The position numbers and the translations under genes are program-made. Below the pieces are notes generated by a model. The model did not search any database and was not told where the DNA came from. It saw only the letters and a program-made list of their open reading frames with translations. Below are positions 1-62,447 of a DNA stretch of 64,000 bases, piece after piece. The first letter of the stretch is position 1, and the number at the start of each line of letters is the position of its first letter. Source of the DNA: a virus; IMG/VR virus record IMGVR_UViG_3300034064_001073, positions 15,874 through 79,873 of that record; one strand, 5' to 3'.

Positions 1-217
1 TTTCTTCCTGCGAACTTATTCTTTCAGGTGGAACTTCAAAATACAGATCATTAATCCAAAAGGCATGATTGAACTTATCACCATACTCTTGGTATCCAGT
101 ATTTAGCAAAGCATCGCTAACTGTTTCTCCATCAACATTTTCATCTAAGTAATTCTTAGCAGCATAAGAGTCTATTCTAGCTCTTCCACCACCAGCGTTA
201 TATCTATTATCAGCCAT
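1..217 (-). CDS. Partial CDS running off the left edge; probable tail/baseplate protein
   Basis: Manual translation MADNRYNAGG...FWINDLYFEVPPERISSQEE is open to base 1. Its ATG overlaps the TAA of the upstream gene (TAATG coupling at 215-219). Confidence 0.7.
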   Translation of the reverse strand, partial: MADNRYNAGGGRARIDSYAAKNYLDENVDGETVSDALLNTGYQEYGDKFNHAFWINDLYFEVPPERISSQEE

Positions 218-3200
218 TATAGTTGCCTCTCCAAATCCGAAGGGATATTGTAATTGTGATTAATTTTTACGCCAACTTGTGCACCTGGAATTATTCCCTG
301 AATAGATCTTGCATATTCAACAGGATTAGTTTTATCAACAATCATTCCTCTGTTAGATATTCTTACAGCCGCGTTATTCAAATAAGATTTAGAAGCAATA
401 GAGTTAGGAGAACTCATAGCGCCAGACATCTCAGCAGAGCCGGCACTTCTTGCCATTTCTTCATCTTGGGTTTGATTATAATTCGAGTAGTTATCACTAA
501 GAAGATTTCCACTATTGATAAGTTTCATATCTGCATTAGTTGGGGTCATCATCATTCTACCAGGTGGCGGTGGTGGGACATCTACTAATGGTTCGTCGTC
601 GTATCCTGAGTTAAACAAAGCATAGGCTCCTGCTGTTACAGCTGCACCAACCATACCTGCTCTCGCAAATTTATTAGCAAAAAGAGACTTAGCAGATTCC
701 TTGTTTTCTTTAAGCTCTTTCTGGGCTAACTGTTTTGCTACTGAGTTTTTACCTCTGCCAGCTGCTTTTGCTTTTTCTGTTGCATTTAAACGTGCGAGAT
801 CTTCTGCTCCAAAGCTAGAAGCATTAGCGCCAGTTAATGCGTCTTTAAACTCAGTGACTTTTTTCTTAAACTCTTGACGCTTTGCTTCTGGTAATGCAGA
901 CATAGCAAAATCAATAAGCATATCGCTTCTGCCAGAGTCAAGTTGATGTAAAGCAAACTCAGAGTCTGCACTACCTGATAGGTAAGAATTCAATATATCT
1001 CCTGCTGTTGTCTTTTCTGATTTCTTACCACCGCCAGCTAGAATAGAAGCTCTTGCTAATGAGAACGAACCTAACGTGGCATCGCTGGTTTCATCAATCT
1101 TGTCTGCATCTCTAAATCCAAAATCTTTCAAAAGACTCTTATACTCAGCTAAACCTTTTGTTAAATCTTCATTTTCCAACGCAGAATGGAAACGACTGTA
1201 TAGAAGTTTTCTAGGTGACATAGCCATATGCTTGAAACCAACAGCTTTCTGCTCTAGAGCTTGCAAGAAGTTTGACATCTCTTCTGACGAGCCTCGATCA
1301 ATGCCACCTGTGCTTCTCATAACATAGTTTATTTTATGTAGTGCTCTAGCTGTATTTGAAATAATACCGACATCTTCTTGTCCAACTTGTCTCATGAAAG
1401 CGGTTTGTTTTCTAGTTAACTTGACGCTACCACCAGTAAGTAACTTCTGTAGACTTTCATCAATTGCTTTTTCGTTTGCCATACTTCTCATATCATAGTT
1501 CTTTTGTCTTTGATATTGAGTTGAAAGATTTGGCGCGCTAATTAAATCTGAGATTCCCTCCCAGTAATCTTTAATGTTCTTACCACTTCTATTTCTATTA
1601 CCTGCACCTACAGCCATAACAGCAGCTGTGTCTCCGTCAAAGTCAGATGAAGTTTTACCAGATATAAAAGCACCAATTCTTTTCCAGATTTCCTGACCAT
1701 CTATGTCGACTTTCTCACCTAGAATATTAGCTGTATATCCTCCAGTCTTGTCTCTTCGAGGATCGTAATACCCAGCCATCGTAGAAACTGACTCTACGCT
1801 AATCTGAGGATTTTGCCAACCCATAACAGCGTATTTCTTTCCTTCTTCTAAGACTCCTCGTTTCATTTTCTTTAAATAGTTTTTCTCACTAGCAGAAGCA
1901 CCTCTCATCATTTCGTCAAAGTGGCCTTCAATAACTCTTTTACTCATACCTATTCCATAGCCTTGAGTTTCCTTTGCTACTTTATCATCTAAGTTTGCAA
2001 TGACCATGCCATACTCAGCACCACGTAGTCTTCCTTCAAAGGGGGCGTTAAAGGCTTCCATGCCTTTTCTCGCCCCAACATCCATCAACTTTCTACGTAG
2101 GTCTAGAAAGGCCTTCTTATCCACGTCTGCAATGTTTGTTTCAACTGTATTTAATACTTCAGTTATCATTTCTTGCAAGTCTGTGTCTTCTACATTTCTA
2201 CCAGCTCTGCTATCTCTTAGAGATAACTTCTTAACATCATCAGCAGATGGTATGTAAATATGGCCGCCTTCATGCTTTAAGAATCCGCCTTTAGTTTTAA
2301 TCCTGTTAAAAGCTGTTCTTCGTGCAGGTTCAGCTTCTTGTTTTGTAAAATCCAAAACGCGGTCTTGTTTTACTATTTCTCTATTTGAGTTCTTTGCAAA
2401 GCTAGCTAACTGAGATACATAACTAGGATCAAAAGTTTGTATTCTTTGTTGTATTGTTTCCCATACTTTTTTCATATGTCCATGTCTTTCGTTTTGCGAA
2501 TCCATCAATTGATAAAAGATATGGTCAATAAAACGACGTTCCATTCTTGCATCATTACCAGGTGTTATTGATGAAGAATCTGCAACTCCATGCAAAGATA
2601 AATTGAATACCATTTTTGAGTTTTTAATCCCAGACTGAACAGAGGATACGAAATCTTTATCTATACCTAAGTCAACAAGAGCTTGAACTCCTTCATTCGA
2701 ATTTAACATTGTTTCAAATGTACTTCCCTGCTCAAAGCCAAATACATTACCAAGTAACTGTTCACGTTCAGCCATTAGACTTGGATCTTCTATGAAAGCA
2801 TCCTCTGCCCTTTTCAAGAAACCAATCAATGCGTTAGTATCTTCCATTGAGTAGCTTTCGCCCATTCCCTTTTTCATACCCGCATGAAATGCTTTATAGC
2901 CAGCTTCCATTGTAGCTGTATCCCCGCCTGCAACTGAGTACATAGCATCGCTAGTTATATCTCCTGCGTAATTTCTAATATCACGTAAACCTAGTAACGG
3001 ATTACCAGAAGCGTCAAACTTGTTAAGAAGAAATCCTATTGCGGATTCTTGCTGAGTTCTAACATTTCTAATGTTGTCTCCCTTTATAAAGTTACGTCCT
3101 TCTCCAATGAAGGTTGTATGAGGCAAAGTTCTTGCTTCTGCGGTAGAGCCAGCAAAACTAGGATCCACTGCCGCAAAAGCCCCAGCAATTGCAGATGCAT

Positions 3201-6200
3201 TTCTTGTTCCAAGTATTTCATTAGCTTTCCCTGTTCTAACAGAGTCTCGCATTGAGCTCCAGGCACTATGAGTTGCATCAGAATCATATCCAGGAAGTTG
3301 ATCTTTGAAATCTGCAAGCTCTTCTTTTATCTGCTTCAAAGCAGCTATATGTGCATCTCTCTGTGGCTTTAGATCTGTCTGAGCAGCAACTGTTCCAAAC
3401 TGTTTAACAGTCTCTTCTTCAGCTTTTTTGCCAGCAATTGCTTTATATGCAATTGTTTTTCCTTTTCCAATCATTCTATTTAATTGTCTAAGTCTATCTG
3501 CATTTGCAAGTTTCTCTTCTTCAAAAACTTCCCTCTCTTTTAGGCGCGGCATAAGAGATTTATTTCTCTCTATCCTAGGAATACCTGGTCCCCCTAAAGA
3601 CATTCCAAAAGGTGAAACTTTGGCATCATTCTCCATTGCCATAGTCCAGCCGCCTACGCCACCTTGCTCAAGCAAAGTAAAAGGATTCTTACCAGAGAAA
3701 AAAGATTGTAGTCCTTTTCTTTGAGAACCACTAATACCTAGTAATTCTTCCACCATAGCAGAACTACCACCAGACGCTCCTAAATATTTATTTATAGTTT
3801 TTTTAATAACTTGCTCTGAGAATGCTCCAGGCCCATTATATGATGACGTAAGACTTTTTTGTAAATTAGGTCTTTTACCTTGCATCCAACTAGGGGCGTT
3901 TGCTTGTTTACCCTTTGTCTTCATTAAGGCTGAGCGAAATGAACTTTCAGCATCACCTAGACTTCCTAGGCCTCTTCTCTCAAATTCCTCTTGAAGACCT
4001 TTAACTTTCTTTTGTTGTCTGCTAAGTCTACTTGAAATGCTATTTTTAAGCATTTCTTTGCCATCTGGAATGCCTCCAAAATAACGATACATATTAGTAA
4101 AAACATCTCTATCTTGCTCTGGTAAAGATTTTGTACCTGCCATATACTTAATAGTATCTTGATTTCTTTCCCAGAACTTTGCTTCTTCTTCTAAGTTGAA
4201 AAGAGCTTGGACTTCTCCAATTGCTCTTGCTTGGAAATCTTCATTCTTTACTCTTGGAGGTTTTTGTTTTCTACTTTTTAATAGCTGATCTCTTTCAGCC
4301 ATTAAATCAAATAATGAAACAGATCCAGTTTCTGTTCCTTTACCAAAGCTTGGTCTAGTTGGAAAAACAGCATCAAGCAATTCAGATTCTGGGACTGTAT
4401 ATCTTTCTCTCTGGGACCTTAAACCAGCCTCAAGATCTGCTGTGCTTTTTTTATTCTTATTGACTCTTTTTGTCATAGAAGGACCTTTAGGTCCAGTTGG
4501 GAAAATCTCAGGCAGTCCCTCTAACAATTCCCTTTCTTGATCAAGCGGAACTCTCTCACCTAGGGATGTTTTATAATTTTCATAAGCTTTCTCAAGAGCT
4601 CCACCCCTCAAGTTCCCCATAATTTTTCGCTCTTCGCCTCTAGTAAACTTTCTTCGTTCCCCTACTATTTTTTTCTGAGCAGCAGCCGCTTTCTTTTTGT
4701 CTGTTAACTGATCCAAAGCTTTCTTTAGCGCATCAACTTCTGGAGCACGTCTTTGCACTTCTTGATCATAAAGAGTATTTCTATTAGTTTTTGCTAATTG
4801 TTTTGCATTAGTAAAGAATTCATCTTTCTGTGCTTTTTCAAAATCTTTAACTGATTGATACTCGTCATTGGTTAATTGTTCATCAAATAAAGAACTTTCA
4901 GTGCTAGTCGTAGCACCAAAGGTCTTAGTACCTTCACCAAAGCCGCTTACTCTGCCAATGCTAAATGTATAGTCATCAGTTCCGGGAATGACATCTAAAA
5001 TAGCAAGTCTTCCTTGACCAGGAACATCTACAGTAACGTCTGTAAGGTTGTCTCCTTCGACACTCTTACCAAGCCAATCACCTTGATCTAAGAAGATTGG
5101 GTTATCTTGTAACTCTTGTCTTATAGCAGCTTGTCTGGCCGCTGCATCTCCTGTTCCTGCTTTCTCTGCAATGTCAATAATGCCTTTGAATTTCTCGTTA
5201 TACTGAAATGGTTGACGAGTTGCAGGTGCACCCTTGGTTGATTTATCAATTGTAAAATGTCTTCCAGGATGTACAACTTCTTCACCTTCACTCGCGCCAA
5301 CTCTAATTCTTGTACCTTCAGGAACTGCCTGTGGATTTTCTTTCATAGATCTTTTAGTAGTTAGCCAACTGCCATGTACAAAACCTATCATGCCAGATTT
5401 TTCCATATCAGCAAAAGCACCTGATCCTCTAAACGCATAGAGATCACCTAACGTAGCGCGCATGTGCTTGAGTGCTCTCTGTGAGCCTCTATTCTGTACG
5501 TTATATGCGCTAATAATATGTCTACCAGGTCGACGTCCTATATCATTTGTAGAATAAAATTGACCAGTATCAGGATTAACTTCTCCTAGAGCTGCTCTTA
5601 CATAGTCTGGTGTTTGGGTATTGATAACTTGCCCACTCGGACCTCTTTGCACTGTTCTATAGTTAAAGATATCTTTCTTAGTTTGGTTAGGACTAGTGAG
5701 TGGTTCAATTACGTAACCATGCCCCTCTGCTTGTCTTTGGAACTCATCAAACTCTCCAACTCTTGAAGAATCATCTGGGCTGAATTCATCACTCAACTGA
5801 AGATCCTCATCCATAGGGTTCATAGTTCGAACAACTTTCATCTGAGCCGCTTTAAGAGACAAGGCTCTAGACGGAGTTCTTACAGGATCTATGTACTGTA
5901 GGATTTTATATTGATCATCAGCGTCAACATCTTTGCCACCAAACAAAGACGAACTAAGACGCCTGCCACTTTGAAGACTCTTATCAATCATTCCCATGAT
6001 TGCGCCGCCTTCACGCCCATACTTACCGTTCTTGTAAACATCTCTGCCAAATAAATACTCAAGCCCAGTCATAACTTCACTGGTTTTGTCTTTATTGATT
6101 TGCATCACTCTGCCAGTTGGACTGTACATAACCGAACCAGCAGCATCTCTATGGTAAATCTCAGCGCCTGTTGAAGCATCTTTATAATGTGACAGTTCTT

Positions 6201-7209
6201 GGATTGGCATCATAATGCTCTCAGCGTTTTCTCCGCTACCAACTCTGTACTGAGCATATCTAAATTTTTTACTAGCACTGTCCCCAATCTTCTGATCAAT
6301 CTCTACAATGTTTGACCTATTGTAGGTCATATCAACGCCTCTTCTACCTACTCGCTTTTCAAAGTTTTTTATTCGTTGAGCTTCTTCTTCCGTTAGATCA
6401 GAATCTGAAAGAAATTTAACATTGGATAGAGTGTTGTTTCCTGTTCCAAAATTAAGTAAACCTCTTGTTCCAGTTGCAGTCATTGCTCTGTTACCATGTA
6501 ATCTTTTTGAGAAAACATCAGCCATACCATCTACTCCGCCATACAAACTACTGAATGTATTAAGAAGAGGATTTAAAGCACGTCTTGCACCCTTAACATC
6601 CATGGGACCAAAGCTAGACCCCTGCAATTTGGCAAGTAAACTTTGATAGGTTTTCTGTTTATGAGTTCCTTGAAACACTCCTGAGAATCTTTTATTTTGC
6701 ATAATGTCAAGAAGCGTAAGTCTTGTAGCCTCAGCTTGTTGTCCATAGAATGAATTAGGATCTGCCGCAAAATTAAAATTGTTTACATTAAGAGGCCCAT
6801 TAACAATGGGAATTCCTCCTGGAACTCCTTGGGCACCCATAGGAGTACTTGTTACCATCTGATTGGCTACAACAAGACCGCCACCCTTTAGTCTCTTTCC
6901 TTCAAACTTATTTTTTTGCTGACTCCATAAGTACTGAAGTTGCTGAGCATTCATTGCATTTTCAATTGCAAACTGAAGACTTTTATTACTATCAGGTCGC
7001 ATATTATTTGCTTTATACTGATTACTTAATGTCTCAAAGAAAGTTCCATTCTCATACTCGCCTAATGTATTTCCGATATATGAATCGGTAGTAGTGCCAG
7101 TTAGCATTTGCTTAACTGCACTAAGTGTTAAATCGCTGCCTTTTGCTTTTCCAAAAGCTAAAGCGCCTAACCCTATGCTTAGTAAGTTAAAAATCTTATC
7201 GCTAATCAT
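217..7209 (-). CDS. 2330-aa putative virion-associated two-barrel (DPBB) DNA-dependent RNA polymerase
   Basis: SSDFDGDTAAV (DFDGD at 1630-1644) is preceded about 58 aa earlier by VMGWQNPQIS, the spacing of the beta-prime R.P...DxDGD barrel. GEGTKTFG is a possible beta-like lysine motif. The gene lies in the tail module directly after the tape-measure-like gene. Confidence 0.7.
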   Translation of the reverse strand: MISDKIFNLLSIGLGALAFGKAKGSDLTLSAVKQMLTGTTTDSYIGNTLGEYENGTFFETLSNQYKANNMRPDSNKSLQFAIENAMNAQQLQYLWSQQKNKFEGKRLKGGGLVVANQMVTSTPMGAQGVPGGIPIVNGPLNVNNFNFAADPNSFYGQQAEATRLTLLDIMQNKRFSGVFQGTHKQKTYQSLLAKLQGSSFGPMDVKGARRALNPLLNTFSSLYGGVDGMADVFSKRLHGNRAMTATGTRGLLNFGTGNNTLSNVKFLSDSDLTEEEAQRIKNFEKRVGRRGVDMTYNRSNIVEIDQKIGDSASKKFRYAQYRVGSGENAESIMMPIQELSHYKDASTGAEIYHRDAAGSVMYSPTGRVMQINKDKTSEVMTGLEYLFGRDVYKNGKYGREGGAIMGMIDKSLQSGRRLSSSLFGGKDVDADDQYKILQYIDPVRTPSRALSLKAAQMKVVRTMNPMDEDLQLSDEFSPDDSSRVGEFDEFQRQAEGHGYVIEPLTSPNQTKKDIFNYRTVQRGPSGQVINTQTPDYVRAALGEVNPDTGQFYSTNDIGRRPGRHIISAYNVQNRGSQRALKHMRATLGDLYAFRGSGAFADMEKSGMIGFVHGSWLTTKRSMKENPQAVPEGTRIRVGASEGEEVVHPGRHFTIDKSTKGAPATRQPFQYNEKFKGIIDIAEKAGTGDAAARQAAIRQELQDNPIFLDQGDWLGKSVEGDNLTDVTVDVPGQGRLAILDVIPGTDDYTFSIGRVSGFGEGTKTFGATTSTESSLFDEQLTNDEYQSVKDFEKAQKDEFFTNAKQLAKTNRNTLYDQEVQRRAPEVDALKKALDQLTDKKKAAAAQKKIVGERRKFTRGEERKIMGNLRGGALEKAYENYKTSLGERVPLDQERELLEGLPEIFPTGPKGPSMTKRVNKNKKSTADLEAGLRSQRERYTVPESELLDAVFPTRPSFGKGTETGSVSLFDLMAERDQLLKSRKQKPPRVKNEDFQARAIGEVQALFNLEEEAKFWERNQDTIKYMAGTKSLPEQDRDVFTNMYRYFGGIPDGKEMLKNSISSRLSRQQKKVKGLQEEFERRGLGSLGDAESSFRSALMKTKGKQANAPSWMQGKRPNLQKSLTSSYNGPGAFSEQVIKKTINKYLGASGGSSAMVEELLGISGSQRKGLQSFFSGKNPFTLLEQGGVGGWTMAMENDAKVSPFGMSLGGPGIPRIERNKSLMPRLKEREVFEEEKLANADRLRQLNRMIGKGKTIAYKAIAGKKAEEETVKQFGTVAAQTDLKPQRDAHIAALKQIKEELADFKDQLPGYDSDATHSAWSSMRDSVRTGKANEILGTRNASAIAGAFAAVDPSFAGSTAEARTLPHTTFIGEGRNFIKGDNIRNVRTQQESAIGFLLNKFDASGNPLLGLRDIRNYAGDITSDAMYSVAGGDTATMEAGYKAFHAGMKKGMGESYSMEDTNALIGFLKRAEDAFIEDPSLMAEREQLLGNVFGFEQGSTFETMLNSNEGVQALVDLGIDKDFVSSVQSGIKNSKMVFNLSLHGVADSSSITPGNDARMERRFIDHIFYQLMDSQNERHGHMKKVWETIQQRIQTFDPSYVSQLASFAKNSNREIVKQDRVLDFTKQEAEPARRTAFNRIKTKGGFLKHEGGHIYIPSADDVKKLSLRDSRAGRNVEDTDLQEMITEVLNTVETNIADVDKKAFLDLRRKLMDVGARKGMEAFNAPFEGRLRGAEYGMVIANLDDKVAKETQGYGIGMSKRVIEGHFDEMMRGASASEKNYLKKMKRGVLEEGKKYAVMGWQNPQISVESVSTMAGYYDPRRDKTGGYTANILGEKVDIDGQEIWKRIGAFISGKTSSDFDGDTAAVMAVGAGNRNRSGKNIKDYWEGISDLISAPNLSTQYQRQKNYDMRSMANEKAIDESLQKLLTGGSVKLTRKQTAFMRQVGQEDVGIISNTARALHKINYVMRSTGGIDRGSSEEMSNFLQALEQKAVGFKHMAMSPRKLLYSRFHSALENEDLTKGLAEYKSLLKDFGFRDADKIDETSDATLGSFSLARASILAGGGKKSEKTTAGDILNSYLSGSADSEFALHQLDSGRSDMLIDFAMSALPEAKRQEFKKKVTEFKDALTGANASSFGAEDLARLNATEKAKAAGRGKNSVAKQLAQKELKENKESAKSLFANKFARAGMVGAAVTAGAYALFNSGYDDEPLVDVPPPPPGRMMMTPTNADMKLINSGNLLSDNYSNYNQTQDEEMARSAGSAEMSGAMSSPNSIASKSYLNNAAVRISNRGMIVDKTNPVEYARSIQGIIPGAQVGVKINHNYNIPSDLERQL

Positions 7210-7217
7210 AGTAAAAC

Positions 7218-12095: not shown

Positions 12096-12146
12096 AGTAA
12101 CTTACTATAAAAAGAGTATATTCTTATTTTCTCTTAAACACCTATC

Positions 12147-13208: not shown

Positions 13209-13225
13209 TTTTTATCTTATTATGT

Positions 13226-13741: not shown

Positions 13742-13749
13742 AAAAACTC

Positions 13750-14631: not shown

Positions 14632-14645
14632 TAAATCTCCAGAGT

Positions 14646-15422: not shown

Positions 15423-15423
15423 G

Positions 15424-15552: not shown

Positions 15553-15570
15553 AAGCAATCCTCCATAAAT

Positions 15571-15601: not shown

Positions 15602-15627
15602 CTTCTTAGGAGGTTTAACTAATACTC

Positions 15628-16266: not shown

Positions 16267-16284
16267 TTTTGTTCTCCTTTAGAA

Positions 16285-36690: not shown

Positions 36691-36691
36691 A

Positions 36692-49100: not shown

Positions 49101-49109
49101 AATCTAGCC

Positions 49110-50950: not shown

Positions 50951-50955
50951 AGAAA

Positions 50956-51762
50956 ATGAAGATCGACCGCGAAGATAAGTTCATGTTCTCTATCATTATG
51001 GTACTTGTTACGTTCATTACGACACTGTTCATCTATTCGGTGAGTATCACTCGTGAACATGCGGCGGCTATGTATGAGAAAGAAGTCCGTCAGGCTGTCT
51101 GGGTAGCCGATAGCGACTATGCAGAGGTTGTGATGCAGTTGGAAGAGTACCTTGACGAAAAGTTTCATGCAGAAAACAATATCCACCATGGTATTGGCCC
51201 TGTTGCAACCAAAGGCGATAAGGGCCCTCTTGAGGACACTTGGGACTGTACCGCTTGGAAGTGGAAGGGTAAAGTCTATACGGCAGAACACTGTGTACGT
51301 GAAAACTACGAGGAAACTATGGGTGACGTAGTTGTATCGGCTGATAAGTACCCCCATGCCATCAAAGAGGATCTATATGACATCGGTATTGAATGTAGCA
51401 CGGATCTGCGCTGGTGGGGTGCGAATACGGACATGTGGGGCTACATTCCTTTTGAGCAGGCATTTAATCACTATAAGCAAGTAGTGAATGGTGCAACTGT
51501 TACTAATCAGCGCTTCATCTGTGCTGCTAGCATCAGCCTTGAGATTGCTCCTGTGGTTGGCGACTCTGGTGGCCCGCTTATGGCTGGTGATGAAGTCATT
51601 GGCTTCGTCAGCTATGGTGAGAGCCCGAAGTGGGCTGACAGTGATATGCTTGAGAACTTTGACATCAAATATAAGGACGCCCTATATGGTGACCTTACAT
51701 ATTGCTGGGGTGTACTGGATAGAAGCCAGGATACGATCAGCAAGTCGGAACAGTCCAACTAA
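50956..51762 (+). CDS. Membrane-anchored trypsin-like serine protease
   Basis: YTAEHCV (His), YDIGI (Asp) and GDSGGPL (Ser) triad motifs, plus an N-terminal TM helix. Start is uncertain (ORF is open from 50821). Confidence 0.85.
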   Translation: MKIDREDKFMFSIIMVLVTFITTLFIYSVSITREHAAAMYEKEVRQAVWVADSDYAEVVMQLEEYLDEKFHAENNIHHGIGPVATKGDKGPLEDTWDCTAWKWKGKVYTAEHCVRENYEETMGDVVVSADKYPHAIKEDLYDIGIECSTDLRWWGANTDMWGYIPFEQAFNHYKQVVNGATVTNQRFICAASISLEIAPVVGDSGGPLMAGDEVIGFVSYGESPKWADSDMLENFDIKYKDALYGDLTYCWGVLDRSQDTISKSEQSN

Positions 51763-54700: not shown

Positions 54701-57700
54701 TGGGTACCGCATTGAGATCGAGGAAGTCAACGAGGACGCTATCTTTATGACGGTCAACAGCCGTCAGGACATCGAAGCGCAGATGGACTTGTTTGCGAAG
54801 ACCATGGTGGCAAACAATGATAGCCCGTTCAGCGCGGCCATCGGTACGGTCGCGCAGTCTCACAAGTTCGCCTTGGGCATCTTGGCGGGTCACGTTGTGC
54901 TTCCTGAGCACATCCGTCACATTGCCAAGGACTGGGCGCTGTTCGTGGTCCGCACCATCCTGCTTTCTGACATGGTCGATGCCTGTAACAAGGGCAAAGG
55001 CTACAAGAAGGCTGCAGAGGCACTCCAGGAGCTCAATTGGGCCTGGGGCTGGCTCTGTTACCAGATTGCCAAGGTCGAGGACGCTAAGGTCGTATGCCCC
55101 AGCCAGTACCTGGTAAGCGTGCCTCCCATGGCTCGTGACCTGTTCAAGGCCCGTCATGCAGAGACCTATGAGCTGGATGGCAAGACCCGCAAGCCTGGTT
55201 CAATGCTTGCTAACTTGTTCAGCTACCATGAAAAGCTGGGCAATGCGGTAGAAGCTCTTGCTACCAGTCAGCATGACCGCATGGAGTTCGCAGCTACCGT
55301 GAGCGTAATGGCTGACGCAGTTTCGATCCCGATGGGTGGTGCTCCCTCTGCCCAGGCGTTCGTTGCTCCTATCTGGAAGAAGGTCTGGTCGGAGAGCGGT
55401 CGTCTCAAGACCTACCTTGATGGCCTTCAGTGGCTGTCTGAGCGGAAAGAAGAGGGCAATGATGACGTCAAGGCTAATCAGCGCTATATGGCTGAGCTCA
55501 ACGACATCACGGTGTGGGCGGCTCACGCGGAATTCGACATGACTGTCCTTGCTGCTCTTGTGGACGCCAATCCCAAGGCAAGCAAGGCTGAGATCGAGGC
55601 TATGTTCAAGATCGCCAAGCTTGCCATGATTTACGTCAATGGCTTCAAGGCGCTGCACGTACCAGACAACAGCATCAAGATCATCATGGACAAGGACGGC
55701 AAGTTCGTGGCCTCGGGTGGTGTTGCTGGCTACCTTCTTCCGACCTGTGGCTCAAGCAGCTGTGTCGGCAAGGATGGAGAGGCGGAGTTTGTGGGTGGCA
55801 GTGAGATCCTCATCGAGTGGATGATGGATCCTGCGGTCATTGCTGCAGTCGCCGCACGCAAGGCTGTTGATGGCGACTTCAAGTTCGTGACCTTTGTCAT
55901 GAAGACGGATGCCTTCGGTGATGTAGTCAACGGTAAGCGTCCTCTCCTTTACACGGAAGACGACTTCACTGGTAAGACCGTCATGGAGATTCTCGGGATG
56001 CCTGGTGTCTACTTGGCTGGCAATACCGATGATGAGGCTCACGAGATGCAGAGCACGTTCCTTGCTGGCATCGCAGACGATGTCAAGAAGAAGCGCAAGG
56101 ACACGCTTGTTGCAATGAAGCGCGCGATTGCCGACGCCAAGGCCCGTGCTGCAGAGGCTAAGACGCAGAACAAGCATAAGCTTTATGCTCAGCTTATGCA
56201 GCAGGCCGCAGAGGCTCAGGACAAGCTGACCGCCTTTGCCGCGAGCTCGTTCGCAGAGCTTCTTGGCGCATTCAAGATCCGCAGCGTCGAGGAGAATGTC
56301 AAGGGCACTGCAGTTGTCGAGACCATCGACACCTTCCTCTGGCAGGACGCTAAGAAGCAGGCGTATGCTCAGTACCACAACACCTTTGTTATCGTCAAGT
56401 TCGAGTCTGACTCGGATCCTGAGGGTGACAAGGTTGAGGTTGTTGCTCCTGTTGAGGTTGTCGCAGCTCCTGTGGTGCCTGCTGTTGTGGCTCCTATTGT
56501 GGCTCCTGTTCAGAAAGATAAGGGTGATCTTCTTGGTCGGCTTAACCGCATTCATAATGTCAAGGAGCCTGCTGTTGTGGCAACTCCTGCCGTGACTCCC
56601 GTTTACCGGATCGCTTTCACGGGTCACCGCCCTGAGAAGATTGGTGGCTACGATGAGAGCAGCCCGATGCGCGTCGCTGTGAAGAACGCCATTGCAGATG
56701 CATTGAAGCGTGCAATTGCTAAGCATGGCGAATCCAAGGAGATCATCGTCGTTACGGGCGGTGCCCTCGGTGTAGATACTGATGCAGCCCGTGAAGCGTA
56801 CAAGCTTGGTCTTAAGTTCATCGTGGCGCGTCCTTGCAGTGACCACGGTGAAAACTTCAAGGCTGACGCTAAGGTTGCCTATCAAAAGATGCTCAAGATT
56901 GCTCATAAGGTTGTTCTCGTCAATGAGCAGCCGTACGACTTGGCAGGCAAAGCAGACTGTCTCCATGCCCGCAACCGCTGGATGGTCGACAACTGTGACG
57001 CTGTCGTTGCTATCTGGGACGGCTCTCCTAGCGGCACTTCGAACTGCGTTGCCTATGCAAAGAAGGCCAATCGTCCAATGATCATCATCAACCCGAATGA
57101 TCTAATGGGCAACGAACCTACTCCTCCTAGTGATCCTAAGCCTGCTCCTGAGACTGCTCCTAGTGTGAGATCAACAACGCTTGGTCTTCCTAATCGTCTT
57201 GCAGATCAGGTTGAAGTTGAAGCCAAACTCGGACTTCCTGAGGATGGTCGTAGCTTTACTGGAGAAATCCAGACACCAAACGGAAATACGATTGCAAGCA
57301 AATATACCCGCATTGTGTACGGCGACCATGGTCCCTACATCGAGCTCGATGCTGCTAGTGTTGACCTTAGCAAATGGCAGATCCGTCAGAAAGGTTCTCA
57401 GGCTTGGTATGACGAAGCCCGGCTTGATGGAGTAATGCTGTACATTCAAAATCGGGATGTCAGCACCCTCCCGAATCCTCCTGCGGGCGCAAAGTCTACG
57501 CGCAACAACCGCCCCGAAGGGTATGCAGACTATCAGCCAGGAATGCTGTACGTTGATCCCTTTAAGGTCAAGATTGTTCCTGCTGCTACTGTATCAGAGG
57601 TTCCTGCTGTGAAGAATGAACGCAAGGACTATCCCATCAGCGGTCATACCTACCGTGAGATCTTCCAGGAAAATGGCAAATATAGTGCTGAACTTGCAGA

Positions 57701-58292
57701 GAAGTTCTTCGACCTTGATTACGTCCTCGATCTGCGGCGCGAACCTCAGAACCAGCATGACAACAATGCGATTGCCCTGTATGCTCAAAGGGACAAAGTC
57801 GGATACGTGCCTAAGGATCTTGCAAAAATGCTTGCCCCCATGATAGATGCTAATCCTAGACAGAAGTACAACTTCCAAGCAGTAGTCACTGGTTGGGATT
57901 CTGGCTATCCTCGTTTTGCCTTGGAATTTGTAACCGTTCATCAGGGTCGTAAAGGAAAAGAAGATGGCCGCCAGTACCAGTACTGGGCAGTTGACAAGAA
58001 TGAAGCAAAAGACTACGGCTCCTTTGTTGACACAGCAATCGTCTCCCTCTCGACTATGATCTCCACCAAGGAAAATCCTGCGCGTTGGGACGAAATGAAG
58101 ACTCAGTACTCTAAGGTATCTGGCTACTGGTTTGACCTCTGCGATGGAGATACGGAAAGCCACAATAAGTTCTTTGCTTGGTTGGAAAACCAGGGACTCA
58201 CTGGTATCAACTTCCTTGGCGGCGAAGATAACAAGTATGTCGTCACCTTTGGAACTAAGGTGATTATGTCGCGCAAGAGCAATGTAGGCTAA
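51762..58292 (+). CDS. 2176-aa YonO/cellular-RdRP-like single-subunit RNA polymerase fused to SLOG (YspA/DUF1273-like), an unknown domain and HIRAN
   Basis: YDGTVYVS...R...KGLVKGMV...SEIK fits barrel 1 and ATRIP...LFP...ASEGGDDDDLY fits barrel 2. IAFTGHRP...TGGALGVD...RNRWMVD...WDGSPSGT is SLOG. LRREPQNQHDNNAIAL...VGYVP is HIRAN. There is a strong internal GGAGG-ATG at 52961-52973. Confidence 0.75.
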   Translation: MLNNMKNNININKVNLMYKFLALAFAIFFAVEFAMFDIVEVMKNVLIAVALVATGAFAAMLKNNIALTGKENPAMGIERLACTARIFVASVIAAIFPVVTAQHAVEIHFIFGFIRSIVESVALQSKSFRVKMAKVIKARGRRMAKAKNWTVIRYQRWLVKWGMANKAKKAKMKKSNNSFVVKVSKMSREQRRRLAHQWRKKAGIKHVNKVVLPSDKKEPMFIYSEGSKIPGGRKSSPPAFIHVATTIAARKRNNNGGKNVKTGPAFNTRARILAQLDRKKNEKTRPQNEIKARIAARKAARRHVRANSPILAMIAAIAITGRDLADSLMGQSLTELLQGGPAFVIFGIIAVICGLALLNWANQEEKKGDNGDETGKFRLYSGPFVGQGENMEDDNTQTAKEVKMGMIENSNNVLRAILEKLTGVGNEMTSPMAKSDREVKTYGRTLDALGYEETALTILHKGFRKMVIRDLTDDDVRALEGKFIWKTENCMVIVRDSQQYEMPNECFTALMKAVVVAGQVPDSKKVVTLQEVNKYMGSLLWARASVVSIKLSEILVMSKAVSDLYDGTVYVSATFAAQAGWQGYAIRRILTAKGLVKGMVIVLPDTYFPAGISIIASEIKQHLSLRNDNGKAIVMQPQGDGHSGSARTLSMQLWAMIMGVFVGSKRFDAFASDSYKDAMNGLDKATEKMLDPAEEGEDGRDKLLAEAARQHGFNPVAAFRSYGMALAQGLTKAFNPKKVNLAPKSANGKVLAPEGYPMMIPWMALADAFTNAKQDVPAWMAEKLEVAIVIEKALMKRANGAIPVLVSNLKMLDAAKVNGIRQYVIAAIATRIPTGKTSGIEVLLFDADEFGTRPVDIGPGLVGRKSKDVEFWLFPNQETLAFKMASEGGDDDDLYKFLTGKLLEIARDGLVWRDSILEETSESKDKETKLRNFLKKFAAEMRIDKGKLTAMMDMPFAKKFAAGKVMVGWPSLLGVKKVSDGYRIEIEEVNEDAIFMTVNSRQDIEAQMDLFAKTMVANNDSPFSAAIGTVAQSHKFALGILAGHVVLPEHIRHIAKDWALFVVRTILLSDMVDACNKGKGYKKAAEALQELNWAWGWLCYQIAKVEDAKVVCPSQYLVSVPPMARDLFKARHAETYELDGKTRKPGSMLANLFSYHEKLGNAVEALATSQHDRMEFAATVSVMADAVSIPMGGAPSAQAFVAPIWKKVWSESGRLKTYLDGLQWLSERKEEGNDDVKANQRYMAELNDITVWAAHAEFDMTVLAALVDANPKASKAEIEAMFKIAKLAMIYVNGFKALHVPDNSIKIIMDKDGKFVASGGVAGYLLPTCGSSSCVGKDGEAEFVGGSEILIEWMMDPAVIAAVAARKAVDGDFKFVTFVMKTDAFGDVVNGKRPLLYTEDDFTGKTVMEILGMPGVYLAGNTDDEAHEMQSTFLAGIADDVKKKRKDTLVAMKRAIADAKARAAEAKTQNKHKLYAQLMQQAAEAQDKLTAFAASSFAELLGAFKIRSVEENVKGTAVVETIDTFLWQDAKKQAYAQYHNTFVIVKFESDSDPEGDKVEVVAPVEVVAAPVVPAVVAPIVAPVQKDKGDLLGRLNRIHNVKEPAVVATPAVTPVYRIAFTGHRPEKIGGYDESSPMRVAVKNAIADALKRAIAKHGESKEIIVVTGGALGVDTDAAREAYKLGLKFIVARPCSDHGENFKADAKVAYQKMLKIAHKVVLVNEQPYDLAGKADCLHARNRWMVDNCDAVVAIWDGSPSGTSNCVAYAKKANRPMIIINPNDLMGNEPTPPSDPKPAPETAPSVRSTTLGLPNRLADQVEVEAKLGLPEDGRSFTGEIQTPNGNTIASKYTRIVYGDHGPYIELDAASVDLSKWQIRQKGSQAWYDEARLDGVMLYIQNRDVSTLPNPPAGAKSTRNNRPEGYADYQPGMLYVDPFKVKIVPAATVSEVPAVKNERKDYPISGHTYREIFQENGKYSAELAEKFFDLDYVLDLRREPQNQHDNNAIALYAQRDKVGYVPKDLAKMLAPMIDANPRQKYNFQAVVTGWDSGYPRFALEFVTVHQGRKGKEDGRQYQYWAVDKNEAKDYGSFVDTAIVSLSTMISTKENPARWDEMKTQYSKVSGYWFDLCDGDTESHNKFFAWLENQGLTGINFLGGEDNKYVVTFGTKVIMSRKSNVG

Positions 58293-58490
58293 TCTCTTTG
58301 CGACTAGAATGGTAAGCAACAAGCAGGCCATTTTTTTCTTCTTTCCTAAAATAGTCCAGATACTCCGCTGCCTTTGTTCGTTCCTCCGCGAAGGCCTATA
58401 TGTACCTTGTAATGCCTGCACCCGCCTGCATAGCCTCCTTCGTCGTCCAGATCTAGTGAGCACTTTTGCTCCTCTTGTACGGTGTCCCCC

Positions 58491-58673
58491 ATGGTCAATC
58501 CCGTTTTTGATGTCCTTACGAAGCCCCAACTCCTTGCGCTGCGGGCGATGCTCGTACACCAGGCCAGCCTCGACGAACTTGAGACCGCGGCCTACATCGA
58601 GACCTGCAAGACCCTCGTCGCAGAGATCGATGAGATGATGGAGCATGCCGAGATGTACTGCTCTGAAGTCTAA
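58491..58673 (+). CDS. Small early hypothetical protein
   Basis: Between promoter copy 1 and a terminator; codon usage like its neighbours. Start is 58482 or 58491. Confidence 0.6.
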   Translation: MVNPVFDVLTKPQLLALRAMLVHQASLDELETAAYIETCKTLVAEIDEMMEHAEMYCSEV

Positions 58674-58685
58674 CGCATCCTCTCA

Positions 58686-58717
58686 ACCCTCGGCTTCGGC
58701 TGGGGGTTTCGCTTTCT
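58686..58717 (+). terminator. Intrinsic terminator
   Basis: ACCCTCGGC-TTCG-GCTGGGGGT followed by a T-rich tail. Confidence 0.8.
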
Positions 58718-58915
58718 CACTCCGCTCCCCGGCCACAAGGCTCCAGCTGCAGCAGCCCTTCGGGAACCAGGCTCCGCTTCACAGTGGGGTAACTCCAGCA
58801 ACCAGGCCCTTCGGCCGCGACAAGGACCGTCAGCAGAGGGAAAAGAGGCCGGACTCCGCTGAATAACCAGATGGCTTGTGGCAACTAGGGGTCTTACGAG
58901 GCTCCTTCGTCGCCC

Positions 58916-59157
58916 AAAGCAGCGGATGGTGGCTGCCGCTACCCGTATCAGAGAAGGCCTGTCGGTCTCTGGTATGTATCAGACAGGGGCGGTTCCCAGT
59001 CCGCTTAACACAAAAACTGGCTGTCATCCCTTTAGGATGGCATGTTAATAAACGTCCCCTCTTGGACGTGTTCCTGGTAGTGGTAGTCCTACCTACTGCG
59101 TACCAGGATAGAGAGGTAAAGCCCCAGCACGGTAGGACGTGTTGGGGTTTTATTTTT
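58916..59157 (+). ncRNA. Structured multi-pseudoknot ncRNA, copy A
   Basis: Promoter-to-terminator unit with no credible ORF. Hairpin-loop CCTGTC pairs with GACAGG, CCAGT with ACTGG, and GTCCTAC with the terminator loop GTAGGAC. Homologous to copies B and C. Confidence 0.7.
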
Positions 59158-59221
59158 CTCACTCCGCTCAATAACCAGATGGCTCATACAACCAGGGGTC
59201 TAACGAGCTCCTTCGTCGCTT

Positions 59222-59555
59222 AAGTACGTGAGGTAGTTGCGCACCTCTTAGACATGCTCACAACCCTGGGTGAGCGTGAGGAGCCTAGCGAGGCAGGCAC
59301 AGAGGGAGAGTAGACTGGGCTCAATCCACCAGTAGATGCCACACCAATAGTTGTCGGGCATCAAAGCACTAGAAAGGGCCTGTCGGGTTCTAGTGTACAG
59401 TAGACAGGTGCGGTTGCCAATTCCGCATTACGATTTGGATAAGCCTCCTCTTAGGCTGATAGACTCGTAACTAGTAGTGACCCTGCTAGTGTCCTAATAC
59501 GAGATAGAGAAGTAGAGCCCCTGACACAGTAGGACGTGTTGGGGGTTTTATTTTT
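59222..59555 (+). ncRNA. Structured multi-pseudoknot ncRNA, copy B
   Basis: Same core as A with different stem sequences, an extra 5' domain of about 140 nt, and a near-identical terminator. Confidence 0.7.
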
Positions 59556-59623
59556 GTTACTCCGCTATATAACTAGATTACTAGTAAGTGTATAGTGGTT
59601 TGTTAGGGGCTCCTTCGTCGCCC

Positions 59624-59773
59624 AAAGCACTGGGCGTTGACGCTCTGCCATCTCCGTTGGTAGAGACTAGTTCTAATAGACGGGGAGTCCCAAGTCGTCC
59701 TTACGGGCTTGGATAAGACTATCAACAGAAGGACAGATTCCCACTACTAGGCCGGTAGTGGGTTTCTTTTTTT
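59624..59773 (+). ncRNA. Short pseudoknot ncRNA, copy C
   Basis: CTCTGCCA/TGGTAGAG stem whose loop TCTCCGT pairs with ACGGGGA; CCAAGT pairs with GCTTGG. Shares TTACG...TTGGATAAG with B and ends in the terminator CCCACTAC/GTAGTGGG plus a T-run. Confidence 0.6.
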
Positions 59774-59835
59774 GGCCTCCTTCGTCGGCCAGAGAACATG
59801 AGGCACTTTCGCCTCTTGGTCCATTGGAGGACAGC

Positions 59836-60048
59836 ATGAAAGCAGGCAAGTATCACTCCTACGACTGGCGCACAGAGCGGGATGCGGATGCTAATAGGAG
59901 CGTCTTCAGGGCCGCATGGAAGGCAAAGTTCCCTGGGGTCGTGCCGCAGTTCGCCATCATCTTGGATGACGGCAGTTGCCACTGGTGGAACGAGTGGCCG
60001 GATGGGCGGACTCGCCGCCTCCCGCCCGGCACATTCAACATCGAGTAA
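59836..60048 (+). CDS. Small early hypothetical protein
   Basis: GGAGG SD and ATG at 59836; lies between promoter copy 5 and the terminator at 60055-60087. Confidence 0.7.
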   Translation: MKAGKYHSYDWRTERDADANRSVFRAAWKAKFPGVVPQFAIILDDGSCHWWNEWPDGRTRRLPPGTFNIE

Positions 60049-60283
60049 AGATAGACCCCCTGACTTCGGTTGGGGGTTTTTCTTTTCTCACTCCGCTATA
60101 GACCTACAAGGCTCCAGCTCTCAGGCTCTTCGACGGTCGGCAGGTAGGAACCCAACAGCAAAAAGAGGCGAAAATATAGACTCCGCTATGGACCGGAAAG
60201 ACTTTCATCAACTAGTAGTGTAACGGCCTCCTTCGTCGGTTAGGTATGATGAGGTAATGTTGCCTCTGCATTGGAGAATGAAC

Positions 60284-60466
60284 ATGGATAGCGTTTTCTT
60301 TCTTGACAGCCTGAACAACGTATGGCAGACCTGTGGCGCTGACGATAACGATGCTGTGGCATTCGGGCCGAGGGGTTGCGCACGCCGCGTGCCTGCCGCC
60401 TGCTACAACGTTTACCAGAACGACGAGATCGAGGCTGGATGGCAGCTCATCGAGATCACTGGCTAA
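60284..60466 (+). CDS. Small early hypothetical protein
   Basis: GGAG SD; lies between promoter copy 6 and the terminator at 60473-60506. Confidence 0.65.
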   Translation: MDSVFFLDSLNNVWQTCGADDNDAVAFGPRGCARRVPAACYNVYQNDEIEAGWQLIEITG

Positions 60467-60613
60467 TGTGTGACCCTCTGGCTTCGGTCGGAGGGTTTCG
60501 CTTTTCTCGGCTCCGATGACCGGACGGATGGTTCCAGCTCCCAGTAGTCTTACGAGCCTCCTTCGTCGGCCAGAGCATCGGGCAATTGCGCCCCTATTTG
60601 ACTGGAGAATGTC

Positions 60614-61036
60614 ATGAACAGTGTGAACATGGTTGGCCTCCTTACGGCCAGTTCGAAGGTTGAGGGTGACTTTCTCTTCATCGTCCTGGACAACCAGGGC
60701 GAGATGCCGACTCTCGGTTTCAAGGGTAAGCAGAGAGAGGCGGTCGAGAAGTGGGGTGAGCCCAAGCGCATGGTGTCGGTGTCGGGCGCATTGCGTACCG
60801 TCATCAACGGCAACCAGAAGATGACCTTCGTGGATGTCGCCTATAGTCGCTTCCTTGACAGCCAGAAGAAGGTTGTTGAGGAAACGAAGGTTGCGGCCCC
60901 AGCAAAGGTTGCGGCCCCTGCGAAGGTTGCTGCTCCTGCGAAGGCTCCTGCAAAGGCTCCTCCGAAGGTCTCTGCAAAGGCTCCTGCCAAGGCTCCTGCG
61001 ACGGCTGCTCCAGTCGACAACGACGTGCCCTGGTAG
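60614..61036 (+). CDS. ssb: Single-stranded DNA-binding protein with an APAK-repeat linker
   Basis: MNSVNMVGLLT...VSVSGALRT...RFLDS fits the SSB OB fold; acidic-aromatic tail DNDVPW (compare DDIPF). Has its own promoter copy and terminator (61044-61078). Confidence 0.8.
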   Translation: MNSVNMVGLLTASSKVEGDFLFIVLDNQGEMPTLGFKGKQREAVEKWGEPKRMVSVSGALRTVINGNQKMTFVDVAYSRFLDSQKKVVEETKVAAPAKVAAPAKVAAPAKAPAKAPPKVSAKAPAKAPATAAPVDNDVPW

Positions 61037-61279
61037 ACTCGTGACCCTCTGGCTTCGGTCGGAGGGTCTTGCTTTTTGGGCTCCGCTCCCCGGCCACAAG
61101 GCTAGACCTACAACAGCCCTTCAGGAACAAGGCTCCGCTATAGACCTACAAAGTTCCAGCTCCCGTGGCTCTTCGGTCTGCGGAGGACCCGTCAGCAGAG
61201 AAAAAAGTGGCGAAAAATATAGGACCTCCTTCGTCGGTTAGGTTTTGTGAGGAATAGTCCTCGGAGTTTGGAGTATGTC

Positions 61280-61441
61280 ATGAAGTACGAGAAGGTTTCC
61301 CTTGAAGACTGCTATGGCGTTTCGACTGGCGGAGAAGATGACATGATCGAGAAGATCGATAACAAGAGCGAAGGAATGTGGGATCACCGCCCAGACCGTG
61401 TCGACTCGGAGTACATGGACTTCGAAGAGTACGAAGAGTAA
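61280..61441 (+). CDS. Small, very acidic early protein
   Basis: GGAG SD; 53 aa rich in D/E; terminator at 61448-61469. Confidence 0.65.
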   Translation: MKYEKVSLEDCYGVSTGGEDDMIEKIDNKSEGMWDHRPDRVDSEYMDFEEYEE

Positions 61442-61529
61442 AGAAATGGCCCGAAAGGGTTTTTTCTTTCCCCAGACTCCGCTCAATGTCTCGGATACTC
61501 GAACGATAAAGGGGCCTCCTTCGTCGGCC

Positions 61530-61959: not shown

Positions 61960-61988
61960 ATTACTTTACCCGTCCTAAGGAGGACACA

Positions 61989-62447
61989 ATGAACATGAAT
62001 GAGCGTCTTGAAGATTTCGTAGAGAAGATGGGAATGCGATTGGGGTTCTTGTGGGATACTACTGCCAGCTTGACCTGGAGTGGTAACTTTGGGCCGACTG
62101 TCGAGAGGGTAGAGAAGGAAGGTGAGACGATGATGGGCGATTTCTACCTGACCAATGGATTGCTGCACAGCGATCACTGCGGACACAAGGCGACGTTCAC
62201 CATCAGTGTCCCCGGCCAGCACCCAGATGGGTTCATCATGAACTGGCTGAAGATCGAGATCACGAACCTTGACTGGAATGGCGACGGCATCACGCACGAT
62301 GATCCGACTTACTCCCTGCCTGAGTTGAGTTCCAAGTACAACAAGATGGAGTTCAGGGAGGGCTTGAAGTTGGCGGAAACGTCTGCTCAGATTATCGTGG
62401 ACTTTGAAATGGTCTTGGAGGATGTCAAGGCCTCCTTCGTCGGTTAG
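61989..62447 (+). CDS. Early hypothetical protein
   Basis: AAGGAGG SD and ATG at 61989. Promoter copy 10 overlaps its last codons. Confidence 0.75.
   Translation: MNMNERLEDFVEKMGMRLGFLWDTTASLTWSGNFGPTVERVEKEGETMMGDFYLTNGLLHSDHCGHKATFTISVPGQHPDGFIMNWLKIEITNLDWNGDGITHDDPTYSLPELSSKYNKMEFREGLKLAETSAQIIVDFEMVLEDVKASFVG

Follow-up and report, generated by a model that had tools for sequence, protein, structure and literature searches.

Which enzyme reads a short sequence that heads one small transcription unit after another in the early region of a phage, and in what form does it read it? The question is posed by motif B, an 11-base element repeated in a 64,000-nucleotide (nt) stretch of DNA, hereafter the window, that comprises bases 15874-79873 of one 79,873-bp virus contig (genome G000; coordinates are window positions unless another genome is named). 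Two large proteins encoded in the window are candidate readers: P0001, the product of the second early gene, and P0002, encoded in the tail operon. A sequence-only reading of this DNA had taken both for two-barrel RNA polymerases and motif B for a template-strand hairpin promoter in the style of phage N4, serving largely to make non-coding RNAs (ncRNAs). Our preferred reading, which we hold at somewhat less than even confidence, is a two-polymerase cascade resembling that of phage P23-45, in which P0001 starts transcription at motif B and recognizes it partly as shape. The source appears to be a roughly 175-kb freshwater (lake-water) myophage, of which the window is a fragment (completeness of G000, 46% by CheckV); complete relatives of 174-176 kb are G001 (174 kb, with terminal repeats), G002 and G003, which have gene order and a split in GC content in common.

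Motif B, CTCCTTCGTCG, occurs as ten exact copies, all on the plus strand and within 4 kb (58435-62442); a search tolerating one mismatch gives 11 matches against an expectation of 0.46, and 0 of 100 shuffles reach 11. In G001 there are 15 copies of CTCCTNCGTCG (N being T, G or A), every one again in plus-strand orientation; 12 of the 15 cluster in the 6.5 kb immediately downstream of the G001 polymerase gene. A short third contig has a single copy. Across the combined set (26 copies, 24 of them distinct), ten of the eleven core bases are invariant, and the sole variable core base is the middle of a possible triloop. The flanks covary around this fixed core, which is covariation of the N4 type: 23 of the 26 copies have a Watson-Crick pair at position +-1 (14 C-G and 9 G-C; 13 C-G, 8 G-C and 3 unpaired among the distinct copies), where G/G and C/C never occur, and position +-2 is Watson-Crick in 23 of 26, swapping between G-C and A-T. 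The paired share is 90.8% for the plus strand and 87.5% for the minus, against 9-46% (plus) and 24-63% (reverse) in slid controls, and no pairing was found in the 26 copies beyond the flanking stem pairs. Because the observed pairing exceeds 500 of 500 shuffles and every slid control on either strand, we regard the short stem as real. Read on the template strand, the core is CGACGNAGGAG, whose bases can pair as C-G, G.A, A.G, C-G around a GNA loop centered on the variable base, whereas the same inner positions on the plus strand are pyrimidine mismatches. GNA triloops and sheared G.A pairs are chemistry that favors folding of CGACGNAGGAG, and for these reasons the template strand is the one that we would expect to fold.

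The surroundings of motif B support a promoter-like role, as far as sequence can indicate. Four bases downstream of the motif, all 26 copies have an A, with purines after it; in 22 of the 26, a 5' stem-loop begins with a G at +13, lying at a fixed 12-nt distance from the motif; and the start codons of open reading frames (ORFs) lie 40-48 nt after the motif, preceded by GGAG. Several copies begin 0-10 nt after the T-run of the preceding terminator, which leaves no space for another promoter, and no sigma-70-like sites were found ahead of the short units.

P0001 occupies the place, second in the early block, at which the sequence-only reading had put a YonO-like polymerase. Its core is conserved at 50-68% identity in 12 homologues, with YAIRR..G..KGM, RIPTGKTSG and SEGGDDDD invariant, and RR..KG, RxPT and GGDxDD are invariant across the P0001-type proteins of the window, G001, L003 and G002. 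A profile that included the very divergent G002 homologue defined a family of 33 clusters among 1.84 billion representatives; most of these keep [ED]G[GA]DxDD with a free middle position (D, A, L, F, R and others), so that the P0001 loop is DxDD, one residue shorter than DxDGD. The order of the motifs, R..KG, RxP, GG..D.D.D, is that of YonO/RdRP polymerases (PF05183; gp99 of phage 0305phi8-36). At the level of sequence, however, the YonO-like label did not hold: P0001 has no DxDGD and did not match PF05183 at E up to 0.01, nor did eight distant relatives match that family. Its sole Pfam matches are SLOG/YpsA and HIRAN, tblastn against 50,697 phage records matched the SLOG part alone, and hhalign found no match between the P0001 and P0002 families. 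The predicted fold may nonetheless be QDE-1-like. The best three Foldseek matches of the P0001 model are QDE-1, and re-alignment with VIA, an independent all-against-all structural search, paired it with QDE-1 over 486-507 residues (Z 5.7-6.2, root-mean-square deviation above 6 A), RDR2 over 446 residues (Z 6.0), non-virion polymerases over 294-356 residues (P74-26 gp62, Z 5.0; P23-45 gp64, Z 4.9) and P23-45 gp96 over 307 residues (Z 4.2). A wide VIA search with this model was dominated by one helical hairpin (model residues 1000-1080); the non-helical matches are all two-barrel polymerases, and the remaining rows match the hairpin. On these predicted structures, P0001 is likely to be a two-barrel polymerase of a separate, undescribed clade.

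The N-terminus of P0001 (aa 1-430; 51762-53050) contains, besides long basic stretches, three or four hydrophobic segments that resemble membrane spans; together with a hydrophobic segment in the protease encoded by the first early gene, it hints at a membrane-anchored early complex.

P0002 is the DFDGD protein that had been pointed out in the tail module, and that observation is borne out: its gene sits between the sheath and tube genes and the Baseplate_J gene, adjoining a tape-measure-like gene whose 1625-aa product has no family match. Ten homologues, down to 31% identity, make up its family with P0002, and two blocks are invariant across the 11 members, GKTSSDFDGD (aa 1851-1860) and, about 55 residues upstream of the DFDGD block, WQNPQI..ES (aa 1798-1807), in which QNPQI..ES forms an R/N-x-P-x-L-like motif. 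Beta' subunits carry the arrangement NR.P.LH...NADFDGD, which these blocks resemble. P0002 has no match in Pfam, PHROG or PDB sequences, nor by tblastn in the 50,697 phage records, and no polymerase came up when PDB sequences were searched with P0002, with the profile of its family or with P0001. The structural evidence comes from an AlphaFold (AF2) model of aa 1340-2160 built with the family alignment, the part to which our structural conclusions apply (mean predicted local distance difference test, pLDDT, 68). In it, a predicted double-psi barrel spans aa ~1730-1910 and carries the DFDGD loop. The first ~47 PDB matches from Foldseek are all beta' chains of RNA polymerases, those of phages AR9 and phiKZ among them (E values weak, about 1e-2; probabilities near 0.99), and VIA gave Z 8.0-8.7 over 247-367 aligned residues to archaeal A', Rpb1, Mycobacterium tuberculosis (Mtb) beta' and the largest subunits of African swine fever virus (ASFV) and vaccinia, Z 7-9 to domains of the double-psi beta-barrel (DPBB) type, Z 7.5 to QDE-1 and Z 6.8 to the P23-45 gp96 barrel at 20% identity. 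From this modeled fold, P0002 is very probably the catalytic protein of an RNA polymerase. Its conserved N-terminal module (aa 300-780), which had no usable match in the ESM Atlas, holds GRVSGFGEGTKTFG with invariant R, E, G, K and G and may be a beta-type barrel, set apart by a variable 600-residue insert. P0002 would then be a complete two-barrel enzyme and is presumably a component of the virion; of the two two-barrel polymerases claimed, both have matching predicted structures, with one barrel seen in the folded part of P0002.

The sequence-only reading had held that the reader of motif B could not be told from the sequence; when relatives are compared, P0001 emerges as the likelier one. 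In G002 and G003, structural genes are 65-96% identical to those of the window and P0002 is 65-72% identical, and there is no copy of motif B; tblastn with the P0001 core found no match in either genome, and a profile search found a 1471-aa P0001 relative with diverged motifs (RR..KG, RWPTS, DGGDADD) and an 83%-identical SLOG domain. G001 presents the reverse case, with P0002 only about 30% identical, yet with the P0001 type (53%) and motif B kept. Motif B thus travels with the early polymerase, absent where P0002 is close and present where it is distant. In place of the motif, the early arrays of G002 (L019 15684-19980) and G003 (36346-40570) carry five and four copies, respectively, of AGGGGCTATCGCCCCTT, which is absent from G000 and G001. 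This element is a perfect 5-bp hairpin with a T-run, and two of the G002 copies stand 44 and 52 nt before start codons, a placement like that of motif B; it could be a terminator, a promoter or both.

In the cascade that we propose, P0002, a very divergent RNA polymerase probably carried in the virion, would transcribe the first genes, those of the protease and P0001, from the AT-rich region at 50.4-50.8 kb. P0001 would be a single-chain two-barrel polymerase of a small undescribed clade with the metal loop DxDD, fused to a hydrophobic N-terminus and to SLOG and HIRAN, two putative single-stranded DNA (ssDNA)- or nucleotide-binding domains, and it would begin RNA synthesis close to the invariant A at +4, a short way downstream of every copy of CTCCTNCGTCG. 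Its output would be about ten short terminator-bounded units encoding small proteins, a protein like single-stranded DNA-binding protein (SSB), which might itself assist, and structured ncRNAs. Motif B would be read partly as sequence, through its ten invariant bases, and partly as shape, with the short stem forming at some stage; the fold we favor is that of a melted template strand, in which tandem G.A/A.G pairs would lie between the two C-G pairs of CGACGNAGGAG around the GNA triloop.

Several observations weigh against this proposal. On the side of the signal, the pairing counts fit both strands equally and so do not separate template strand, plus strand and RNA; the stem is short, with three outer pairs and one inner C-G separated by two non-Watson-Crick positions; and three window copies have G.T at +-2 or +-3, which is A.C on the template strand. 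Nearest-neighbor DNA folding energies are -0.7 to -4.3 kcal/mol on both strands and do not go beyond shuffles. The ten copies first described as hairpin-forming are all present and exact. A second sequence, motif A (CTCCGCT), could be the real promoter of many units in place of motif B: it lies upstream of many of them, and 11 of its 14 window copies fall within 58363-61483. Motif A may form a second promoter class, and since it occurs in G001 and G002 alike it does not, unlike motif B, track the type of early polymerase. The argument from co-occurrence of motif B and P0001 has a small sample behind it, about three motif-bearing lineages against a single one that lacks the motif, and among the public sequencing runs matching this DNA no RNA run was found. 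On the side of the enzymes, no Pfam RNA polymerase or RdRP model matches P0002, P0001 or the distant P0001 relatives. The P0001 model has low confidence (pLDDT 64; predicted template-modeling score, pTM, 0.41) and is poor around the acidic loop, and its structural Z scores are modest; the DFDGD loop of the P0002 model has pLDDT below 50, and a second, beta-type barrel was not seen in the folded part of that protein.

The overall scheme has a precedent in P23-45, for which a tape-measure-fused virion RNA polymerase (gp96), a non-virion RNA polymerase (gp64) and AT-rich and GC-rich promoter motifs are described (Chaban et al. 2024, PMC10770324; PDB 8H2M, 8H2N and 8F72). As in that phage, the tail operon of the present genome encodes a giant protein whose DFDGD lies in a double-psi barrel; the first genes include one for a second, single-chain two-barrel polymerase candidate, and there are two types of upstream sequence, AT-rich before the polymerase gene and GC-rich before the later units. 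Since two promoter motifs and two polymerases, one of them a tail-fused virion enzyme, are already on record for P23-45, the combination is less new than the sequence-only reading had supposed. The two systems have no detectable sequence similarity, and the host of the present locus is a myovirus where P23-45 is a siphovirus; the barrel of P0002 is near the C-terminus, in contrast to the N-terminal barrel of P23-45; and P0001 differs in its DxDD loop, hydrophobic N-terminus, SLOG and HIRAN domains and in a promoter candidate with covarying flanks, whereas the accessible part of the P23-45 paper makes no mention of a hairpin (PMC10770324). What sets the locus apart from P23-45 is the enzyme clade with these features, the myovirus context and the covarying-stem promoter candidate.

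Other phage polymerases resemble the pair in part. In 0305phi8-36, an RdRP-like gp99 (loop DTDGD) is followed by SLOG gp97 and then small ORFs, all as separate genes, an order that matches the fused P0001 and the array downstream of it; the terminases are distantly related (28.5% identity). P0001 departs from gp99 in its loop and its lack of a PF05183 match, and its family profile did not match gp99 significantly. The virion enzyme gp66 of the crAss-like phage phi14:2 accepts single-stranded DNA as a template but does not transcribe duplex DNA; no motif that could be its promoter was identified, and intergenic regions of that phage are transcribed very strongly early in infection (bioRxiv 10.1101/2020.03.07.982082). 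Like gp66, QDE-1 belongs to the giant or single-chain two-barrel enzymes that prefer single-stranded DNA, and it requires an ssDNA-binding protein; neither gp66 nor QDE-1 has a sequence relation to the polymerases described here. The AR9 non-virion RNA polymerase is a two-barrel phage enzyme that reads its promoter on the template strand (PMC5449584), although it is multisubunit and its promoter is linear, contains uracil and has no stem.

The alternatives concern how motif B is read and by what. One of them goes further than our proposal: the DxDD-loop clade would recognize a folded mini-hairpin on single-stranded template, with a GNA triloop that C-G and tandem sheared G.A pairs close, aided by its fused ssDNA-binding domains and the phage SSB, and would make an array of structured regulatory RNAs, in an independent reinvention of the N4 strategy. 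Promoter shape would then persist while its sequence co-evolved with the polymerase, as CTCCTNCGTCG in one lineage and GGGGCTATCGCCCC in another. We consider this unlikely as a whole. The early promoters of the N4 virion RNA polymerase, which acts with E. coli SSB, use sheared G.A pairs (PMC4496689), and motif B has in common with them a conserved GC-rich core, inverted-repeat flanks on the template strand, a three-base purine-rich loop, potential G.A pairing in or next to that loop, a loop center about 9-11 nt before the likely start and an SSB-type gene nearby. The N4 enzyme, however, is T7-like, with an unrelated fold (a Pfam search for T7-like polymerases in G000 and G001 gave no match, but control genomes gave none either), and N4 has three promoters, which require supercoiling as well as SSB, against 10-15 here. 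The likeness is one of geometry only, and of the N4-style template-strand hairpin the covarying flanks stood, while the stem, with three outer pairs and one inner pair, falls short of the 5-7 pairs of N4 and its strand is left undecided by the counts.

It is also conceivable, though in our judgment improbable, that motif B is the promoter of the virion polymerase P0002, with the short units as immediate-early genes and P0001 responsible for another task, such as later transcription, RNA-templated synthesis or priming. The first promoters of N4 and P23-45 are read by the virion enzyme, the short units look like typical host-takeover genes, and P0002 has a canonical DFDGD where P0001 has an unusual loop. 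The comparison of relatives speaks against this in both directions, since G002 and G003 retain a close P0002 and no motif copy while the motif is unchanged beside the distant P0002 of G001; moreover, no copy of motif B precedes the protease and P0001 genes.

Equally, motif B may be read as plain sequence, in duplex or melted DNA and with no hairpin, the complementarity of its flanks being a by-product of duplication history or of a symmetric contact. The invariance of ten of the 11 core bases does indicate a signal that is mostly sequence, the stem has just three outer pairs with energies no better than those of shuffles, and the P23-45 promoters are described as linear motifs (PMC10770324). 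This explanation leaves unaccounted for the swaps at +-1 and +-2, the absence of G/G and C/C among 26 copies, a degree of pairing that none of the 500 shuffles or slid controls attains, and the position of the single variable core base exactly at the triloop center; we think it has little chance of being sufficient.

We give a slim chance to the possibility that motif B acts in RNA, as a small stem-loop in transcripts that start farther upstream, at CTCCGCT or by read-through; processing or protein binding at this stem-loop would then fix where the units have their 5' ends. The G.T pairs at +-2 and +-3 fit the plus strand or RNA slightly better (90.8% against 87.5% paired), many copies have motif A about 45 nt upstream, and the core contains an anti-Shine-Dalgarno-like CCUCC; on the other hand, the element would be very weak as RNA (three base pairs closing a 9-nt loop, or mismatched pyrimidines), efficient-looking terminators lie directly ahead of several copies, and the intervals that separate motif A from motif B show no structure (z +1.2 to +2.4). 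Finally, host RNA polymerase with a phage sigma factor is a very improbable reader: CGTC resembles the -10 elements of extracytoplasmic function (ECF) sigma factors and G001 encodes a sigma-70 family protein, but no -35 element is conserved at any spacing upstream, covarying flanks are unexpected in a sigma promoter, and the sigma gene lies in the low-GC part, far from the array.

Turning to what the proposed promoters would control, five of the ten copies of motif B head small ORFs, one of them SSB-like, and five head ORF-less stretches (U1 to U5), of which three are RNA units with a terminator and two are long leaders that precede ORFs. The idea that the promoters serve largely to make ncRNAs agrees with this half share, but is tempered by the two leaders. 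Folding relative to shuffles is well beyond chance for U1 (z -6.8), U2 (-3.9) and U4 (-3.2) and weaker for U3 (-2.1) and U5 (-1.3), with coding controls at -0.6 to -2.4; the structured character claimed for the ORF-less units is clearest in three of the five. U1, U3, part of U4, and U5 with the following ORF are 88-96% identical to G001, as compared with 63% for the DNA of the polymerase gene. The U1 copies of the window and G001 differ by 1- and 4-base indels, and U1 is therefore non-coding; a 115-codon TTG frame across it (58876-59223) was rejected as a gene, as it spans a terminator and a motif copy and is broken by the G001 indels. In a comparison of three sequences, 11 of 66 predicted pairs show a compensatory change. 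A 7-nt stretch in U1 (59086-59092) is complementary to the loop of U1's own terminator (59132-59138, both plus strand), and a double change in G001 (G to A, C to T) preserves the pairing, which suggests a pseudoknot or a terminator switch. Within leaders U4 and U5 lie two tRNA T-arm-like elements, GGGTTCGATTCCC and TGGTTCGAATCCAG (61939-61953 and 62552-62566, plus strand), conserved in G001 and G002, where in G002 the second stem changes to G.U-compatible pairs. ARAGORN reported no tRNA at default settings and only sub-threshold calls under relaxed ones, and across 50.4-64 kb the sole Rfam match at E up to 1 was a terminator-like one to NsiR1, with neither a tRNA nor any further family reported.

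The gene behind copy 7 had been called an SSB gene, and its product may be SSB-like: the ESM Atlas model of the exact 140-aa protein aligned with an SSB cluster at template-modeling (TM) scores of 0.59 and 0.54 over residues 1-100 (97 residues at 0.59), and the linker and C-terminal tip read from its sequence resemble those of SSB. No SSB model matched it in Pfam (PF00436, PF16773; E up to 1), nor did any PHROG at E up to 0.1. A canonical-looking SSB gene is present in the same array of G002.

Little has been described of promoter recognition by single-chain two-barrel phage polymerases (YonO, gp66, gp64, gp96), and for its study this locus offers a compact pair: about 1100 residues of polymerase core and a signal of 11 bases whose stem has two covarying pairs. 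The relatives in which polymerase and signal have both changed provide a natural control. If our proposal is right, the P23-45 type of cascade would exist also in unrelated freshwater myophages, and the supposedly invariant DxDGD loop would have a conserved shorter form. The array further suggests that a large share of the early program may be devoted to structured RNAs that are more conserved than the neighboring proteins.

These elements lie in a genome of two parts. A minus-strand block (217-50417, about 39% GC) contains the terminase, portal, capsid, sheath, tube-like and further structural genes and runs on past the window edge to the Baseplate_J gene; the sheath and tube genes together with Baseplate_J identify the phage as contractile-tailed. 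The plus-strand block starts at 50821 and has 52-55% GC. Positions of the individual features are collected in the table.

Positions of the polymerase genes, motif copies and associated features (window coordinates)
Feature	Position	Strand	Remarks
P0002, 2330 aa, candidate virion RNA polymerase with beta'-type double-psi barrel	217..7209	-	family alignment, AF2 model, Foldseek, VIA
Codons of DFDGD (aa 1856-1860; SSDFDGDTAAV, aa 1852-1862)	1630..1644	-	sequence, family alignment
GRVSGFGEGTKTF (aa 753-765), candidate beta-type barrel motif, N-terminal module	4915..4953	-	R753, E759, G760, K762, G765 invariant; motif scan
1625-aa Gly/Ala-rich tape-measure-like protein, neighbor of P0002	7218..12095	-	one hydrophobic segment; after sheath and tube genes
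AT-rich divergent intergenic region ahead of early block	50418..50820	.	without motif B; conserved blocks common to G001
First early gene, trypsin-like serine protease, one hydrophobic segment	50821..51762	+	Pfam Trypsin, E 6e-8; GDSGGP
P0001, 2176 aa, two-barrel polymerase core candidate	51762..58292	+	second gene of plus-strand block, after protease
P0001 domains: hydrophobic N-terminus; core aa 430-1560; SLOG aa 1617-1781; HIRAN aa 1989-2031			
Codons of GGDDDD (aa 888-893), candidate metal loop G[GA]DxDD	54423..54440	+	invariant in 13 homologues; DADD in G002
Motif A, CTCCGCT, 11 copies	58363..61483	+	most copies directly follow terminator T-runs and stand about 45 nt ahead of motif B
Motif B copy 1	58435..58445	+	before ORF 58491-58673
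Motif B copy 2	58902..58912	+	before ORF-less unit U1 (58913-59156)
Motif B copy 3	59208..59218	+	before ORF-less unit U2 (59219-59556)
Motif B copy 4	59610..59620	+	before ORF-less unit U3 (59621-59770)
Motif B copy 5	59777..59787	+	directly after terminator T-run, before ORF 59836-60048
Motif B copy 6	60228..60238	+	before ORF 60278-60466
Motif B copy 7	60558..60568	+	before SSB-like ORF 60614-61036
Motif B copy 8	61226..61236	+	before ORF 61280-61441
Motif B copy 9	61516..61526	+	before 460-nt leader U4 (61527-61985), then ORF 61989-62447
Motif B copy 10	62432..62442	+	overlaps end of ORF 61989-62447; before leader U5 (62443-62600)
SSB-like protein of 140 aa with a domain of about 85 aa, a linker rich in Pro/Ala/Lys and DNDVPW at the C-terminus	60614..61036	+	Atlas model, sequence
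Intrinsic terminator, one of about eight closing short units	60057..60076	+	terminator scan
Further terminators	59740-59762, 60472-60497, 61043-61068, 61448-61461	+	terminator scan
Terminators seen in folds	59120-59156, 59517-59556	+	

The GC split is sharp, with 38-40% in the structural part (1-50400) and 52-55% in the early part (51700-62000), and is kept in G001 and G002. Near-unchanged DNA recurs in lake-water metagenomes, four lake-water DNA runs having given near-identical contigs, and the closest cultured phages by terminase are Moorella phage MTATph1 and Bacillus phage 0305phi8-36 (28-31% identity). The sigma-70 family protein of G001 (region 2, E 7e-21; G001:C1:14910-15119, plus strand, low-GC part) implies that host polymerase is probably redirected for another class of genes. 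Within the structural block, the opening gene (45141-49100, minus strand) encodes a 1319-aa protein with a staphylococcal-nuclease domain (aa 1103-1213), and a 271-aa protein of the head module (26007-26822, minus strand) matches the 'DNA binding protein' family PHROG 3636 at E 6e-22. Two neighboring large genes (36692-42788, minus strand) have a roughly 900-bp 3' part in common, seen as repeats at 37185-37605 and 40435-40855 that are 72-74% identical, and differ in their 5' parts. Just outside the window, a 2666-aa tail-module protein (G000 2793-10793, minus strand; L028) matches an endolysin-annotated PHROG family at aa 2244-2418.

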